In this document: positions 1,960 through 6,448 of the stretch, piece by piece | Layout of the letters: each line of letters starts with the position of its first letter | Numbering within the stretch: position 1 is the first letter of the stretch | Made by a program: the position numbers and the translations under genes | Source: a virus | Lineage: Duplodnaviria > Heunggongvirae > Uroviricota > Caudoviricetes | Length of the DNA: 8,074 nt | Reading direction: 5' to 3' (one strand) | IMG/VR virus record: IMGVR_UViG_2537561710_000018 | Notes under the pieces: generated by a model | What the model saw: the letters and a program-made list of their open reading frames with translations, nothing else | Told to the model about the DNA's origin: nothing | Databases searched by the model: none

Positions 1960-3351
1960 ATGACTGAGAACACGACTCCAACAGCAGACTTTAGTCCTAG
2001 TAAAAGATTTTTTGTAAGTATGCTAACTCGAGATATCGACTTAAACGATGCCATACTTGATCTGCTTGATAACTGCGTCGATGGGGCTTTACGTACAATA
2101 AAAGACACAAAAAAAACTTCAAAACCATATGAAGGATTTTATGCGAAACTTACGATTAATAAAGATGTCTTTATTATAGAAGACAATTGCGGAGGTATCC
2201 CTAAAAGCTTCCGAGAATATGCTTTTAAAATGGGACGACCCCATCAAAAAGAAGAAGAAAATGAAGGCACCGTTGGCGTCTATGGTATTGGTATGAAAAG
2301 AGCCATTTTTAAAATGGGTAGAGATTGCTCAATACAATCGAATAATCCCGATGGCGCATTCACTGTAGATATAACACCTGATTGGATCGATGGTGATGGT
2401 TGGAAAATACCGATGCACGAGAGTGACTATGATAACAAAAATCCAACAGGCACAACTATAGAGATAAAAAAACTCCATTCTAATGTGGCACAAAAATTTA
2501 ATGAGAGCACATATCTTACTGATCTCTTTTTACAGATAAAACACTCATTGTCATTTATTATTCAAAAAGGATTTAAAATAGAATTAAATGGAGTTGTTGT
2601 TGAACATAATCCGATTAACATCATAACTGATCATTCTAAAATAGAACCATACATATATAAAGCTAAAATAGACGATGTTGATATCGATTTAGTTGTTGGC
2701 TTCTATAAAAATTTAGAAGATGACAATGATGATGTTTTAGAAAAAAGGAGTTCTGATGATGCTGGATGGACTGTCATTTGCAATGACCGCGTTGTTCTAT
2801 ATTGTGATAAGACACATCTCACAGGTTGGGGCTTTGCTAATGTACCAAGGTTTCATACCCAATTTATAGCAATTTCTGGGGTTGTTCGCTTTACCAGTAA
2901 AAACCCAGAAAAATTACCAATAACAACAACGAAACGAGGTGTCGATCTTAGTTCTACATTGTACAATGATGTACGAAATAAAATGATTGAAGGGATGATG
3001 CATTTTATTCGATTCACCAATCAGTGGAAAGGTGAGCATCTTGAAGAAGGGAAAAAATTACTTAAGTCAGCTCAGTCACATGAAGCTCAATCTTTATTTG
3101 AAATTACCCCACAATCAACTCCAGAAGATAAAAAAAATAACTGGTCCAACCCTAATAGAAACAAAAATGAGTGGCGATATACACCTAAGCTGCCTACCCC
3201 AGTAAAAAAAAGCTCTACTGTACGAATAATCTTCACCAGAGAGAAAGAAGATGTTAAAATTTTATCTAAATATTTCTTTGGACATGAAGATGCTAGCGCT
3301 TCTGATGTGGGGATGCAATGCTTTGATACGGTGATTGAAGAGGTGAAGTGA
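1960..3351 (+). CDS. GHKL-superfamily ATPase, MORC/Hsp90/MutL-like (Bergerat fold), 463 aa
   Basis: N-box DLLDNCVDG (2059-2085) matches ExxxNxxDA/G. G1 box EDNCGG (2179-2196) matches DxGxG. G2 box GVYGIGMK (2275-2298) matches GxxGxG. All in the canonical order and spacing within the first 115 residues. Confidence 0.8.
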   Translation: MTENTTPTADFSPSKRFFVSMLTRDIDLNDAILDLLDNCVDGALRTIKDTKKTSKPYEGFYAKLTINKDVFIIEDNCGGIPKSFREYAFKMGRPHQKEEENEGTVGVYGIGMKRAIFKMGRDCSIQSNNPDGAFTVDITPDWIDGDGWKIPMHESDYDNKNPTGTTIEIKKLHSNVAQKFNESTYLTDLFLQIKHSLSFIIQKGFKIELNGVVVEHNPINIITDHSKIEPYIYKAKIDDVDIDLVVGFYKNLEDDNDDVLEKRSSDDAGWTVICNDRVVLYCDKTHLTGWGFANVPRFHTQFIAISGVVRFTSKNPEKLPITTTKRGVDLSSTLYNDVRNKMIEGMMHFIRFTNQWKGEHLEEGKKLLKSAQSHEAQSLFEITPQSTPEDKKNNWSNPNRNKNEWRYTPKLPTPVKKSSTVRIIFTREKEDVKILSKYFFGHEDASASDVGMQCFDTVIEEVK

Positions 3352-4340
3352 TGTCTGGACAATACATTCCCTATCACTTAAGGCATAATAAGTCTATTGA
3401 TAGAGAGATTTTTCTCGAAAGCCTAAACCTCTTAAGCAAAAGACTAAATATTCAAGAATATACATATATAGGTTTTGGTGGTCCGATGCTTGAAGATTTT
3501 AGAATCATGCATAATCGTATCGCTCTTTCTGATATGATTTCTCTCGAAGAACAAGAGTCTACTCACATCAGACAAAAATATAATTTGCCTTATAATTGTA
3601 TTGATTGTAAGCTAATATCAGCTCATGACTTTATTCTTGATTATAGTTTTTCTAAACCATCAATAACATGGTTAGACTATGCCTCCCCGAAAAAAATACA
3701 AACGGATCTAGATGATATACACTTACTAAGTACTAAAGTAAGCTCTTTTGATATTTTGAAGGTCACCTTCCCCATAAATCCTAGTTCTTATTACCAACGT
3801 AGAGTTGGAGAAAGTTTAGATATTTTTAAAGAAGCTTTTATTAATTCATTAAAATCATTGCTTGGGAAAAAGTATCTTGATTTTAATCTTCAGATATCAA
3901 ATGCAGATCTTTCAGATCGTAAGATTAAAGCTCTTTTAATACGAATTATTACAAACGCTTTTAGATCAGCAATAGAACGTGGTCTTTCAGGACGTAAGGA
4001 TAAGATTCAGTATTACCCATTATCCTTAAATCAATATAATGATGGCAGTCATACCATGTTGACAATATCAGGTTTTTTCTCCTCAGAACAAGAATATATA
4101 GAGTTATCTAAGGCATGCGACCTTTCTAACTGGCAATTTTATTCAACAAATTGGGAAGACGTGCAAGAAATAGCAATACCAACACTAACAATTAAAGAAA
4201 AGATAAATTTAGATAGTAAACTGCCTGATAAAGAAGCATATCAGGCAGCCGCTGAAGAGTTCTCTTTAAACGAAAATGAACGGGATAACTATTATAAATA
4301 CTATAGGTTATACCCTAACTTCCAAAGAATTATGGTTTAA
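3351..4340 (+). CDS. Uncharacterised partner protein of the GHKL ATPase, 329 aa (candidate effector or specificity subunit)
   Basis: ATG at 3351 overlaps the upstream TGA (TGATG) with GAGGTG 6 nt upstream, indicating translational coupling. Same AT-rich codon usage as the ATPase gene. No nuclease or methyltransferase motif recognised; a glycine-rich IGFGGP segment lies near the N-terminus. Confidence 0.7.
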   Translation: MSGQYIPYHLRHNKSIDREIFLESLNLLSKRLNIQEYTYIGFGGPMLEDFRIMHNRIALSDMISLEEQESTHIRQKYNLPYNCIDCKLISAHDFILDYSFSKPSITWLDYASPKKIQTDLDDIHLLSTKVSSFDILKVTFPINPSSYYQRRVGESLDIFKEAFINSLKSLLGKKYLDFNLQISNADLSDRKIKALLIRIITNAFRSAIERGLSGRKDKIQYYPLSLNQYNDGSHTMLTISGFFSSEQEYIELSKACDLSNWQFYSTNWEDVQEIAIPTLTIKEKINLDSKLPDKEAYQAAAEEFSLNENERDNYYKYYRLYPNFQRIMV

Positions 4341-5459
4341 ATATTCGGGCTGTACTCTTTTATTTAATAAATTGTACAGCCCCTTTAATATATATTCAGC
4401 AACTATTGGTGACACGCTATTTCCTATTTGTCTGAAACTATGCCATTTAGTTACATGAAAGCGAAACCAATCAGGGAAGCCTTGTAATCTAGCAGCTTCT
4501 CTTGGTGTAATCACTCTTGGATGATAAGGGTGGATCGGCCTGACGGCTTGAAAGCTTCCTTTATCTCTAGCGGTTCCCGCCCTTAAAGTCGGGCAAAAAC
4601 CATTTGGATCTAATCTTGTAGATCTTGAAATTTTATCAGTTTCCCCAAAAGATAAGGAAGCATAACGCTCTTGGACGATTTTGCTATGTAATGTTCCGGT
4701 ACATCCAGATATGATATTATTTTTTAACTTAGCGATCGATTCTGTATCACCAACATTCCGAGGGATCTGCCCCCATAATTTTTCATAAAATCCCCCTTTT
4801 CGATCTTTTTTAATTGTTCGCCAACTCTCAGAGTCTGATTGCCAATTGGCATCGATAATATCTGGTAATCCATACAAAGCATCTTTTACAGTAACCGGAT
4901 CAATCATTTTAGGCATAAATACTTCATCTGAAATATCAAGCTTCAATGATTTTTTTACACCGATAAAAAAATATCTAGTTCGAATAGTTGGAGCACCATA
5001 ATCAGATGCTTTTACCTTGATGGGATCAAGAATATCATAATCACCGCTAACCAAATTAAATGCTTTATTTCTAATGCCAGAATATTTCTCTTGCATAATA
5101 CCTGGAACATTTTCTGCCAAAAAGAATAATGGCTGTAATTCTGATACTAAACGGTAGAAATGCATGTAAAGCTGATTCCTGCTATCATCAGGATTCCCCT
5201 TGCCTATTGAACTAAATCCTTGGCACGGAGGACCGCCAATAATACCATCTATGGGCATATCGTTTTTAAAAAAACCCTTAATTATTTCTGCATTTAGTAA
5301 AGAAACATCTTCTTGGACGTGCAAACTTCTTGGAAAATTAATTGCGTGAGTATTAATAGCATGTTGATCAATTTCAACTGCCATTTTAACATCAAATCCA
5401 GCACGTGCAGCACCAAGACTTAGACCTCCAACGCCAGAAAACAAATCTATTACATTCAT
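4308..5459 (-). CDS. DNA (cytosine-5)-methyltransferase, 383 aa
   Basis: Motif I DLFSGVGG (5424-5447), motif IV GGPPCQGF with catalytic Cys (PPCQ at 5220-5231), motif VI ENV (5106-5114), a variable TRD-like region, motif IX RVITPREAARLQGFPDWF and motif X GNSV, all in canonical C5-MTase order. Confidence 0.9.
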   Translation of the reverse strand: MNVIDLFSGVGGLSLGAARAGFDVKMAVEIDQHAINTHAINFPRSLHVQEDVSLLNAEIIKGFFKNDMPIDGIIGGPPCQGFSSIGKGNPDDSRNQLYMHFYRLVSELQPLFFLAENVPGIMQEKYSGIRNKAFNLVSGDYDILDPIKVKASDYGAPTIRTRYFFIGVKKSLKLDISDEVFMPKMIDPVTVKDALYGLPDIIDANWQSDSESWRTIKKDRKGGFYEKLWGQIPRNVGDTESIAKLKNNIISGCTGTLHSKIVQERYASLSFGETDKISRSTRLDPNGFCPTLRAGTARDKGSFQAVRPIHPYHPRVITPREAARLQGFPDWFRFHVTKWHSFRQIGNSVSPIVAEYILKGLYNLLNKRVQPEYLNHNSLEVRV

Positions 5460-5483
5460 ATAGTTGCAACGTCTCTTATTAGT

Positions 5484-5500
5484 TTCTATGTATTATAACA
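5484..5500 (-). promoter_or_regulatory. Candidate extended -10 promoter of the methyltransferase gene
   Basis: Minus strand reads TGTTATAAT (TGnTATAAT; hexamer at 5492-5497, TG at 5499-5500), about 30 nt upstream of the ATG at 5459. The -35 is weak (TAAAAC/TTAAAA). Confidence 0.4.
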
Positions 5501-5721
5501 CAACTGTTCTTGATGTTTTAACCCCATAAGATAACCTCATAAAGGCTATCCCTTGAAAATACCGGATCGCATAAATTTAATCTTTCAAAACTACTTGTCT
5601 ATTAATCGAGCAATTTAAGGTTGTTTTAGTCATGTCGATACCGACATAGTTAACTAAACCCATTTCATCGTCCAACAAATGGGGGTAATACACTTTGATT
5701 TATAGTCGGGTGGGTTTTTCT

Positions 5722-5757
5722 CTATCTGCCTTTGGTGTTCATGCCCAAGGCAGATAG
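5722..5757. repeat. Perfect 11-bp inverted repeat (CTATCTGCCTT, 14-nt spacer, AAGGCAGATAG)
   Basis: Arms at 5722-5732 and 5747-5757 are exact reverse complements. Located in the non-coding region at the right-hand composition transition of the island. No adjacent U-run on either strand, so not a classical intrinsic terminator. Confidence 0.5.
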
Positions 5758-5890
5758 CCTCAAGCACCCGCAGCAATTCTACTTAACTATCCTTTTCCCG
5801 CAAACCGTTTTTATCCCCAGCGGCAAATCGAATACACCACCAGCGCCACCGCCATCGCAATTCCTACCGTTGTGAATGCTTCAGGCCAGG

Positions 5891-6448
5891 TCATTGATTC
5901 ACCTCCTGCGGCGGTTCTGGTAGCGACATCCAGTGGGTTGCTTGCCTAAGATCATTACCCGGACTAACTGCTATACCTCCGCGCCGGAACGTGCCTCCGA
6001 GATAGCGTGCGGAATATATTAATGGCCCAGCCTCGCTATCGATATTCATCGAAATAAGCACGTTCTGGCTCTTTTCAGGCATTCGCTCAGTACAGCTTAT
6101 CCAGCCATCCAGAGTTATCGGAGATCTGGTTGACGTTTCCGAGATTTCCCGAAAATTGTTGGTTGACGAATTCTTATTTTCCCGAAAGTTTCCGGCCTGA
6201 AGCATGGCGACGCGGCAGGCGTTCCAGCCATCAGCATATGTTTTAGTTACACCGTCGAGATGGCAGGTAAGCAAATCCATTTCATCAGGCACTACCATTG
6301 CTATCGGCTCTGCTTCCAGTGATGCCAGCGCGATACGAAACACATTAGCCAGCAGGCTGTCTGAAGACTTGTTATCGTGCGCCGAGTCGCTCAGGAAGCC
6401 TGTGATGTATGATTTAATCTCCGCGCGTTCTCTGGTAATAGTGCTCAT
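5891..6448 (-). CDS. DUF551-like prophage protein, 185 aa
   Basis: C-terminal ATHWMSLPEPP resembles the conserved THWMPLPEPP tail recalled for DUF551 prophage proteins. E. coli-like composition; tightly packed with the upstream gene (2-nt gap). Confidence 0.55.
   Translation of the reverse strand: MSTITRERAEIKSYITGFLSDSAHDNKSSDSLLANVFRIALASLEAEPIAMVVPDEMDLLTCHLDGVTKTYADGWNACRVAMLQAGNFRENKNSSTNNFREISETSTRSPITLDGWISCTERMPEKSQNVLISMNIDSEAGPLIYSARYLGGTFRRGGIAVSPGNDLRQATHWMSLPEPPQEVNQ

Follow-up and report, generated by a model that had tools for sequence, protein, structure and literature searches.

How can two genes that face one another, and whose coding sequences interlock at their 3' ends with no intergenic DNA between them, be kept apart in transcription? 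The question is posed by a stretch of viral DNA of 8,074 nucleotides (the window; IMG/VR record IMGVR_UViG_2537561710_000018; Duplodnaviria, Heunggongvirae, Uroviricota, Caudoviricetes), in which a + strand gene for a PF20553-family protein and a - strand gene for a C5 DNA cytosine methyltransferase (MTase) share their last 33 bp. The first-pass annotation of this locus proposed that the two transcripts must overlap in antisense with no room for a terminator, that so tight a linkage is typical of co-evolved modules, and that transcriptional interference could balance MTase against partner expression. The explanation that we consider probable as a whole is a different one, in which the overlap would be a neutral 3' extension, and each transcription unit would end at its own strand-specific hairpin, set within the opposing gene's coding sequence. 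Such an overlap is ordinary, a by-product of tight packing that belongs to a known class; short convergent overlaps are a known and mostly neutral outcome of stop-codon loss. The two hairpins, here termed H1 and H2, provide a clean example of RNA structure inside opposite-strand coding sequence, and H1 covaries despite encoding a protein tail. A broader caution follows for the annotation of compact genomes, namely that zero intergenic distance does not equate to the lack of a terminator, and knowledge of how the two units are separated in transcription is needed for functional dissection of the module to which they belong.

The overlap and its length

The stop of the + strand open reading frame (ORF) is the TAA at 4338-4340, and that of the - strand ORF (5459-4308) is a TAA that reads as TTA on the + strand at 4308-4310, such that each stop lies inside the opposing gene and positions 4308-4340 are coding on both strands. 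With an overlap length that is a multiple of three the two frames are codon-aligned, each stop being antisense to a TTA leucine codon of the other gene, and the C-terminus of the PF20553 protein (LYPNFQRIMV*) is encoded antisense to the MTase tail (LNHNSLEVRV*). The ORF listing, the sequence and RefSeq annotation all agree on this arrangement, with the identical overlap annotated in Escherichia coli O157:H7 Sakai (ECs_1954/ECs_1953) and in EDL933, and the choice of start codons has no bearing on it. As 173 complete E. coli genomes carry the 3.9-kb region at 99% identity or more, a sequencing error or frameshift is unlikely. The matches of the ORFs to PF20553 and PF00145, homologues in many phyla, and a crystal structure of the MTase (3g7u) show that each encodes a real protein. 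The interlocking ends described in the first-pass annotation were thus borne out in full, although the partner had been mislabeled: the gene that stops at 4338-4340 encodes the PF20553 protein, and the ATPase is the product of the gene upstream (1960-3351).

The length of the overlap calls for no special explanation. In this register, antisense stops arise only from the PF20553 codons TTA, CTA and TCA, which make up 30 of the 329 codons (9.1%), and the antisense frame is expected to run for 11 codons by chance, against 10 observed (P = 0.38 for a run of 10 or more). Once the MTase frame has no stop before that of PF20553, the length of the overlap is at the level of chance; what exceeds chance is its conservation.

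Conservation of the overlap and of the linkage

Relatives of the locus were gathered by protein search, by a scan of one genome per species, by scans of metagenome and viral contigs, and by look-ups of exact proteins. Each of the 11 distinct relatives whose PF20553 protein is 58-100% identical to that of the window has an overlap of exactly 33 bp. These loci occupy several lambdoid prophages, a site adjoining purB in Enterobacter, and metagenome contigs, and the variety of contexts indicates that the three genes (the ATPase gene included) move as a unit. At 47-56% identity the 33-bp overlap is not kept, and the genes are separated by 28, 58 or more than 200 bp. A Yersinia prophage that carries the genes at the same nin position (L072; 53% identity) has a 58-bp spacer, and a still more distant locus (L073; 47%) has one of 28 bp, while in L071 and L115 (approximately 55%) a second, larger GHKL gene lies between the PF20553 and MTase genes. 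In more distant clades overlaps recur with other lengths, of 6, 18, 40, 47 and 50 bp.

The position of the MTase gene was scored within the fetched flank of 88 distinct loci, drawn from many phyla and including one archaeon, and a C5 MTase gene was found in 77. It converges on the ATPase-PF20553 pair with an overlap of 6-50 bp in 27 loci, across a gap of 1-100 bp in 10, and from further away in five; it lies upstream in the same direction in another 27, downstream in the same direction in seven and in divergent orientation in one, and was not seen within the flank in the remaining 11. At the level of the family it is the linkage of the three genes that is characteristic, whereas the overlap belongs to particular clades. 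The proposal of a tightly linked, co-evolved module therefore stands insofar as the genes are co-inherited, but the overlap is not its defining feature, given the spacers of the sister loci and the frequency with which the MTase gene lies upstream in the same direction. Likewise, comparison of homologous loci upholds the overlap uniformly within the 33-bp clade, but yields spacers or other arrangements in sister lineages.

In L071 (5208-8195) and L115 (4274-6990) the C5 MTase is paired with this larger GHKL ATPase, which comprises some 580-610 amino acids and matches PF13589. The pairing also occurs in L011, L014, L015, L019, L028 and L058, and makes for loci of four genes in which the two GHKL proteins differ. 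A further variant in Rhodoferax (L008, 3616-10709) has two diverged ATPase-PF20553 pairs converging on one C5 MTase gene.

Hairpins embedded in the opposing genes

A stem-loop is found shortly past each stop on the transcribed strand. The first, H1 (GGGCTGTAC ... GTACAGCCC; 4347-4382, + strand), lies 6 nt after the PF20553 stop, in MTase codons G360-P371. Its fold may also be written as GGGCUGUAC...GUACAGCCC over the same positions, followed by CUUUAAUAUAUAUU to approximately 4396; the loop is 18 nt, and the minimum free energy is -17 to -19 kcal/mol (z = -2.7). H1 is kept in all 11 relatives despite changes in both its sequence and the residues that it encodes, for example from GLY...VQP to RLR...TQP or KLY...AQL. 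On a MAFFT alignment 90.9% of the cells in its 14 pairs are paired, compared with 24-51% in slid controls, and both sides have changed in 11 of the 14 pairs, a degree of covariation matched by none of 500 shuffles. When synonymous codons were resampled with the amino acids of the tail held constant, the native hairpin was the more stable in 10 of 10 sequences (P <= 0.004). Wobble cells read on the + strand comprise 18 G·U against a single A·C, and this direction reveals which transcript uses the hairpin. We propose that H1 acts as an intrinsic terminator or 3' stabilizer of the ATPase-PF20553 mRNA.

The second hairpin, H2 (core CTGCCTGATA / TATCAGGCAG; 4219-4250, - strand), begins 57 nt after the MTase stop, within the PF20553 codons for LPDKEAYQAA. 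It has a stem of 10-12 bp (core CUGCCUGAUA/UAUCAGGCAG) and a U-rich tail, UUUACUAUCUAAAUUUAUCUUUUC. In the relatives 88.6% of cells are paired, compared with 25-51% in slid controls; H2 is more stable than its codon resamples in eight of 10 sequences (P <= 0.02), and its wobble cells on the - strand comprise 17 G·U against four A·C. H2 is proposed as a terminator or 3' stabilizer of the MTase mRNA.

The strand bias of the G·U pairs suggests that both structures are hairpins at RNA 3' ends rather than DNA palindromes, as wobble is favored in each case on the strand with a stop codon just upstream. Together these features make it most likely that H1 and H2 are strand-specific intrinsic terminators or 3' stabilizers, with termination itself predicted from the sequence. 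The contention that the transcripts overlap in antisense without room for a terminator holds in its first part, as an mRNA extending to its own stop must be complementary to the other for 33 nt or more; its second part is countered by conserved hairpins with U-rich tails past each stop, for which the room is found inside the opposing gene.

A comparable structure was observed in the clades with overlaps of 40-50 bp (L075, L012, L017, L020, L021, L103-L113), where a + strand hairpin lies approximately 20 nt past the PF20553 stop. There the MTase motif-X codons GGTAAYAGC (G-N-S) pair with a downstream GCTRTTACC, and one pair covaries, from T-A to C-G. These clades provide another instance, independent of H1, of a hairpin inside MTase coding sequence.

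Two facing transcription units

The model that we favor would comprise two facing transcription units, one for the ATPase and PF20553 protein and the other for the C5 MTase, each with its own promoter. A sigma-70-type promoter-like site (TTGACT-16-TAAAAT; 1880-1907, + strand) lies approximately 50 nt upstream of the ATPase start and scores 10/12 in a consensus scan, with TTGACT/TTGACA and TAAAAT-like hexamers kept in L065, L117, L116 and L067. On the - strand, an extended -10 site (TG-n-TATAAT; 5492-5521) lies approximately 30 nt upstream of the MTase ATG, also scores 10/12, with the TG in addition, and is kept as TGnTA(t/g/a)AAT in L065, L101, L117, L116 and L067. We infer that both sites are promoters. 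In a microarray study of a Sakai lysogen, ECs1954 and ECs1955 fell together at the transition to stationary phase, by -2.6 and -3.2 fold (PMC2241611), which fits a single operon expressed from the prophage. Each unit would end at a hairpin within the 3' coding region of the other, the + strand unit at H1 and the - strand unit at H2, and if the hairpins do terminate transcription, the two mRNAs would be antisense over some 180 nt, from approximately 4210 to 4395.

The leading alternative, albeit an unlikely one, is that the overlap is itself a regulatory device: polymerase collision, or RNase III cutting of the paired 3' ends, would set the ratio of MTase to ATPase and PF20553 protein, and on induction N-antiterminated transcription from pR through the MTase gene would silence the ATPase operon. 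Persistence of a convergent, zero-spacer layout over 58-100% identity is consistent with such a device, as is the use of TTA or CTA for Leu320 of PF20553 by all 11 relatives, when only about half of the leucine codons in these genes are of this kind. Moreover, in every lambdoid context the MTase gene is co-directional with the early genes of the phage, to which the ATPase operon is opposed, such that antiterminated lytic transcription would be expected to pass antisense over the ATPase operon. Precedents exist in stem-loop-dependent polymerase collisions (10.1101/2022.10.23.513370), and in type I toxin-antitoxin pairs and the antisense control of EcoRI and Eco29kI (PMC3874152). Nonetheless the module does not need the overlap, as sister loci have spacers of 28-58 bp and the MTase gene is same-direction or divergent in 35 of 88 loci, and conserved hairpins on both sides suggest that the transcripts are stopped rather than colliding. 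An effect on the ratio of methyltransferase to effector may be inferred; a terminator on either side would speak for insulation no less than for interference.

A bolder version, to which we give slightly less credence, would treat the interlocked 3' ends as a switch for what may be an epigenetic or defense module. In the lysogen the units would be insulated by their terminators, with the antisense duplex of some 180 nt tuning their ratio; on induction, antiterminated early transcription would read through H2, raising MTase expression while antisense transcription and polymerase collision silenced the ATPase and PF20553 genes. If so, progeny DNA would be methylated while the effector was off.

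Are the hairpins terminators?

The proposal of two strand-specific hairpins that end their respective transcripts has several points to contend with. The U-tracts of H1 and H2 are moderate, the first 8 nt containing four to five U; the tails of the relatives are mostly UUUC, CUUUUU or UUUUUC, with none after H1 in L067, where the sequence is not U-rich. Covariation in H2 is weak (three pairs changed on both sides), and its conservation owes in part to conserved amino acids. The MTase mRNA, too, forms H1 ahead of its own stop, with a possible further effect there, and a simple promoter and terminator scan reported neither hairpin site near the junction. All of these observations weigh against the proposal, except that the negative scan was not accepted as evidence against terminators, as H1 exceeds its loop limit (<=8 nt) and H2 falls just short of its tail rule.

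It might accordingly be asked whether H1 and H2 are instead palindromic sites in DNA to which a protein binds, or have arisen by chance from codon choice. Both are inverted repeats in DNA, and the location of H2 in conserved codons with little covariation, together with the silence of the consensus terminator scan, would fit such an origin. We regard this as improbable. The asymmetry of wobble between strands (18 G·U against one A·C, and 17 against four) is expected of RNA and not of duplex DNA; the stem sequence of H1 varies freely while its pairing is kept; both hairpins exceed codon-resampled controls in stability; and each lies 3' of a stop on the very strand where its wobble pairs work.

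Coding constraint and the methyltransferase tail

If the hairpins probably account for the ends of the transcripts, the overlap itself remains to be explained, and the pattern of codon change within it is one-sided. Summed over all sequence pairs from the 11 relatives, changed codons in the 33 bp are synonymous in 280 cases and non-synonymous in 58 when read in the PF20553 frame, and synonymous in 61 and non-synonymous in 277 when read in the MTase frame. Purifying selection is evident in the PF20553 frame only. The C-terminus of the PF20553 protein reads LYPNFQR(I/V)(M/I)V in all 11 relatives, and the MTase tail takes forms as different as LNHNSLEVRV, SYNDALEIRV and SDNYPLKVGV, among others. 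The Pfam domain of the MTase ends at residue 361, and PDB entry 3g7u_A is this exact protein, crystallized as residues 1-366 (window 4362-5459) plus a tag, without the last 17 or so residues that form the tail containing the overlap. In L072 and L073 the MTases comprise only 367-370 amino acids and end in ...PLYNLCK* and ...KLCQL*, respectively. The tail is a passenger, dispensable for folding.

Because the PF20553 frame is constrained and changes in the MTase frame are mostly non-synonymous, the overlap is best read as a neutral 3' extension, with the PF20553 frame under purifying selection and the MTase tail following. In this account the intergenic spacer would have been lost in the 33-bp lineage, and the MTase frame would then have run beyond the PF20553 stop to the first antisense stop, supplied by the TTA or CTA codon of the invariant Leu320. 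That the tail, with its 10 overlapping codons, is instead a functional peptide under dual coding, for instance one that docks the ATPase-PF20553 complex, is very improbable and was rejected on the extent of the 3g7u construct and the codon-change counts (277 of 338 changes in the MTase frame being non-synonymous). The near-constant length of the tail in the 33-bp clade and the recurrence of positions such as Leu379 and a terminal (V/I)-x-(V/I) might speak for function, but the recurrence is forced by invariant PF20553 residues on the opposite strand, the domain and the crystal construct both end before the tail, and the outgroup MTases lack it.

Comparison with known overlaps and terminators

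Convergent overlaps amount to 7% of overlaps among well-characterized genes (3,035 of 42,055, in 338 genomes; PMC2478687). The window resembles those in which a frame that has lost its stop is extended at the 3' end, the standard origin of such overlaps (Rogozin 2002; Palleja 2008, PMC2478687), being a short overlap of real genes in which one frame is extended to a chance stop, and which is kept among fairly close relatives only. It is unlike them in that its extension appears to have swallowed or re-created a terminator region, such that a covarying RNA hairpin now lies inside the extended tail.

As to the ends of the transcripts, polymerase collision in convergent E. coli pairs has been described together with a stem-loop (Wang 2022; 10.1101/2022.10.23.513370). 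The likeness resides in the convergent units, the 3'-overlapping transcripts and the stem-loop that marks the end of transcription. Bidirectional intrinsic terminators are also said, in work by Ju from 2019, to lie between convergent genes of E. coli. The window differs from these in having two strand-specific hairpins approximately 130 bp apart in coding sequence, in place of a shared intergenic one. The classical arrangement is found in the sister loci L072 and L073, whose spacers each contain a single textbook hairpin (in L073, AAAAGCTCTC-AACT-GAGAGCTTTT) with an A-tract and a U-tract that would serve both strands; the window has no such bidirectional hairpin. Direct positional descent of H1 from the intergenic terminator of L072 was considered and rejected, as one arm of H1 falls within the codons of a conserved G-L-Y, which L072 also encodes, upstream of its own MTase stop.

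Antisense pairs that overlap at their 3' ends are also known from type I toxin-antitoxin systems, such as fst RNAI/RNAII and bsrG/SR4, with cleavage by RNase III, and antisense control operates in EcoRI and Eco29kI (PMC3874152). The window would share with these their facing promoters, 3' complementarity of tens to more than 100 nt, and the placement of protective and potentially harmful functions on opposite strands. Both of its RNAs are, however, full protein-coding mRNAs, and the resemblance to type I systems is one of layout only.

The three-gene module and its prophage setting

The window corresponds to part of the lambdoid prophage Sp10 of E. coli O157:H7 Sakai (ECs_1953 to ECs_1955), and to the equivalent region of EDL933, with the module located in the nin region. 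The three genes are low in GC (32-36%, the phage DNA that flanks them having 47-49%), and long non-coding spacers of approximately 500 bp (1461-1959) and 430 bp (5460-5890) lie on either side. The spacers and low GC content fit insertion of the module into the nin region in the manner of a moron, between the DUF1367/Q-antiterminator genes and the replication-side genes. Horizontal acquisition of the module in Sp10 forms part of the explanation that we consider best. A megablast search of a phage collection returned no match for the element, which is known in prophage form only.

The first gene of the + strand operon (1960-3351) encodes a MORC-like GHKL ATPase of 463 amino acids, with an N-terminal GHKL domain fused to one of the S5 fold. 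No PDB entry matched this protein by sequence, and a fold search, used instead, identified MORC and SMCHD1 as its closest structural relatives. In eukaryotes, MORC and SMCHD1 have roles in methylation-linked silencing. Homologues of the ATPase number at least 5430 at E <= 1e-10, with 45-48% identity across phyla. The second gene (3351-4340, + strand) encodes the PF20553 ('Methyltransf_35') class I methyltransferase-fold protein of 329 amino acids (E = 2e-89); its ORF begins at 3348 in the ORF listing, and its annotated ATG at 3351 shares one base with the TGA of the ATPase gene (TGATG). The third (4308-5459, - strand) encodes the C5 DNA cytosine methyltransferase of 383 amino acids (PF00145, E = 2.6e-61; TIGR00675 dcm; PADLOC MTase_II). 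PADLOC and NCBIfam gave no match for the ATPase or the PF20553 protein, PADLOC holds no model for the module, and a literature search found no paper that mentions PF20553. Together, the C5 DNA methyltransferase, MORC-like ATPase and PF20553 protein constitute a widespread, uncharacterized module.

Prokaryotic MORC and paraMORC GHKL ATPases have been linked to DNA methylases in operons that resemble restriction-modification systems (Iyer, Abhiman and Aravind 2008, PMC2292703). The present module conforms to that description in its N-terminal GHKL domain with S5 and in its DNA methylase neighborhood (77/88 loci), as it does in its patchy distribution across phyla and its mobility. Its constant third partner is, however, the PF20553 methyltransferase-fold protein, and not a helicase, Vsr or a nuclease of the restriction-endonuclease fold. 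As regards Type II restriction-modification, a DNA methyltransferase gene is present, but no restriction endonuclease was found linked to the module, nor any nuclease domain. A GHKL protein described in a paper on Vibrio cholerae WASA was rejected as a relative: it is a Shedu-type GHKL-nuclease fusion of unrelated architecture.

Two further observations concern the genes that flank the junction. The RefSeq name 'O-methyltransferase' for the PF20553 gene (3351-4340) appears doubtful, as the closest folds are those of nucleic-acid N-methyltransferases (Trm1, RsmD-like and RlmJ). Invariant motifs FGGP, S-x-E and W-L-D-Y look like an S-adenosylmethionine-binding loop and a DPPY-like motif. An unannotated gap lies upstream of the MTase gene, and in it a - strand segment (5645-5769) matches the sok antitoxin RNA of Rfam (RF01794) over the whole model, although below threshold (50.2 bits, where the gathering score is 59; E = 3.9e-9). 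Just upstream of it, a small - strand ORF (5811-5894) encodes a hydrophobic peptide of 27 amino acids (MTWPEAFTTVGIAMAVALVVYSICRWG), and the two may together represent the remnant of a hok/sok-like type I toxin-antitoxin system.

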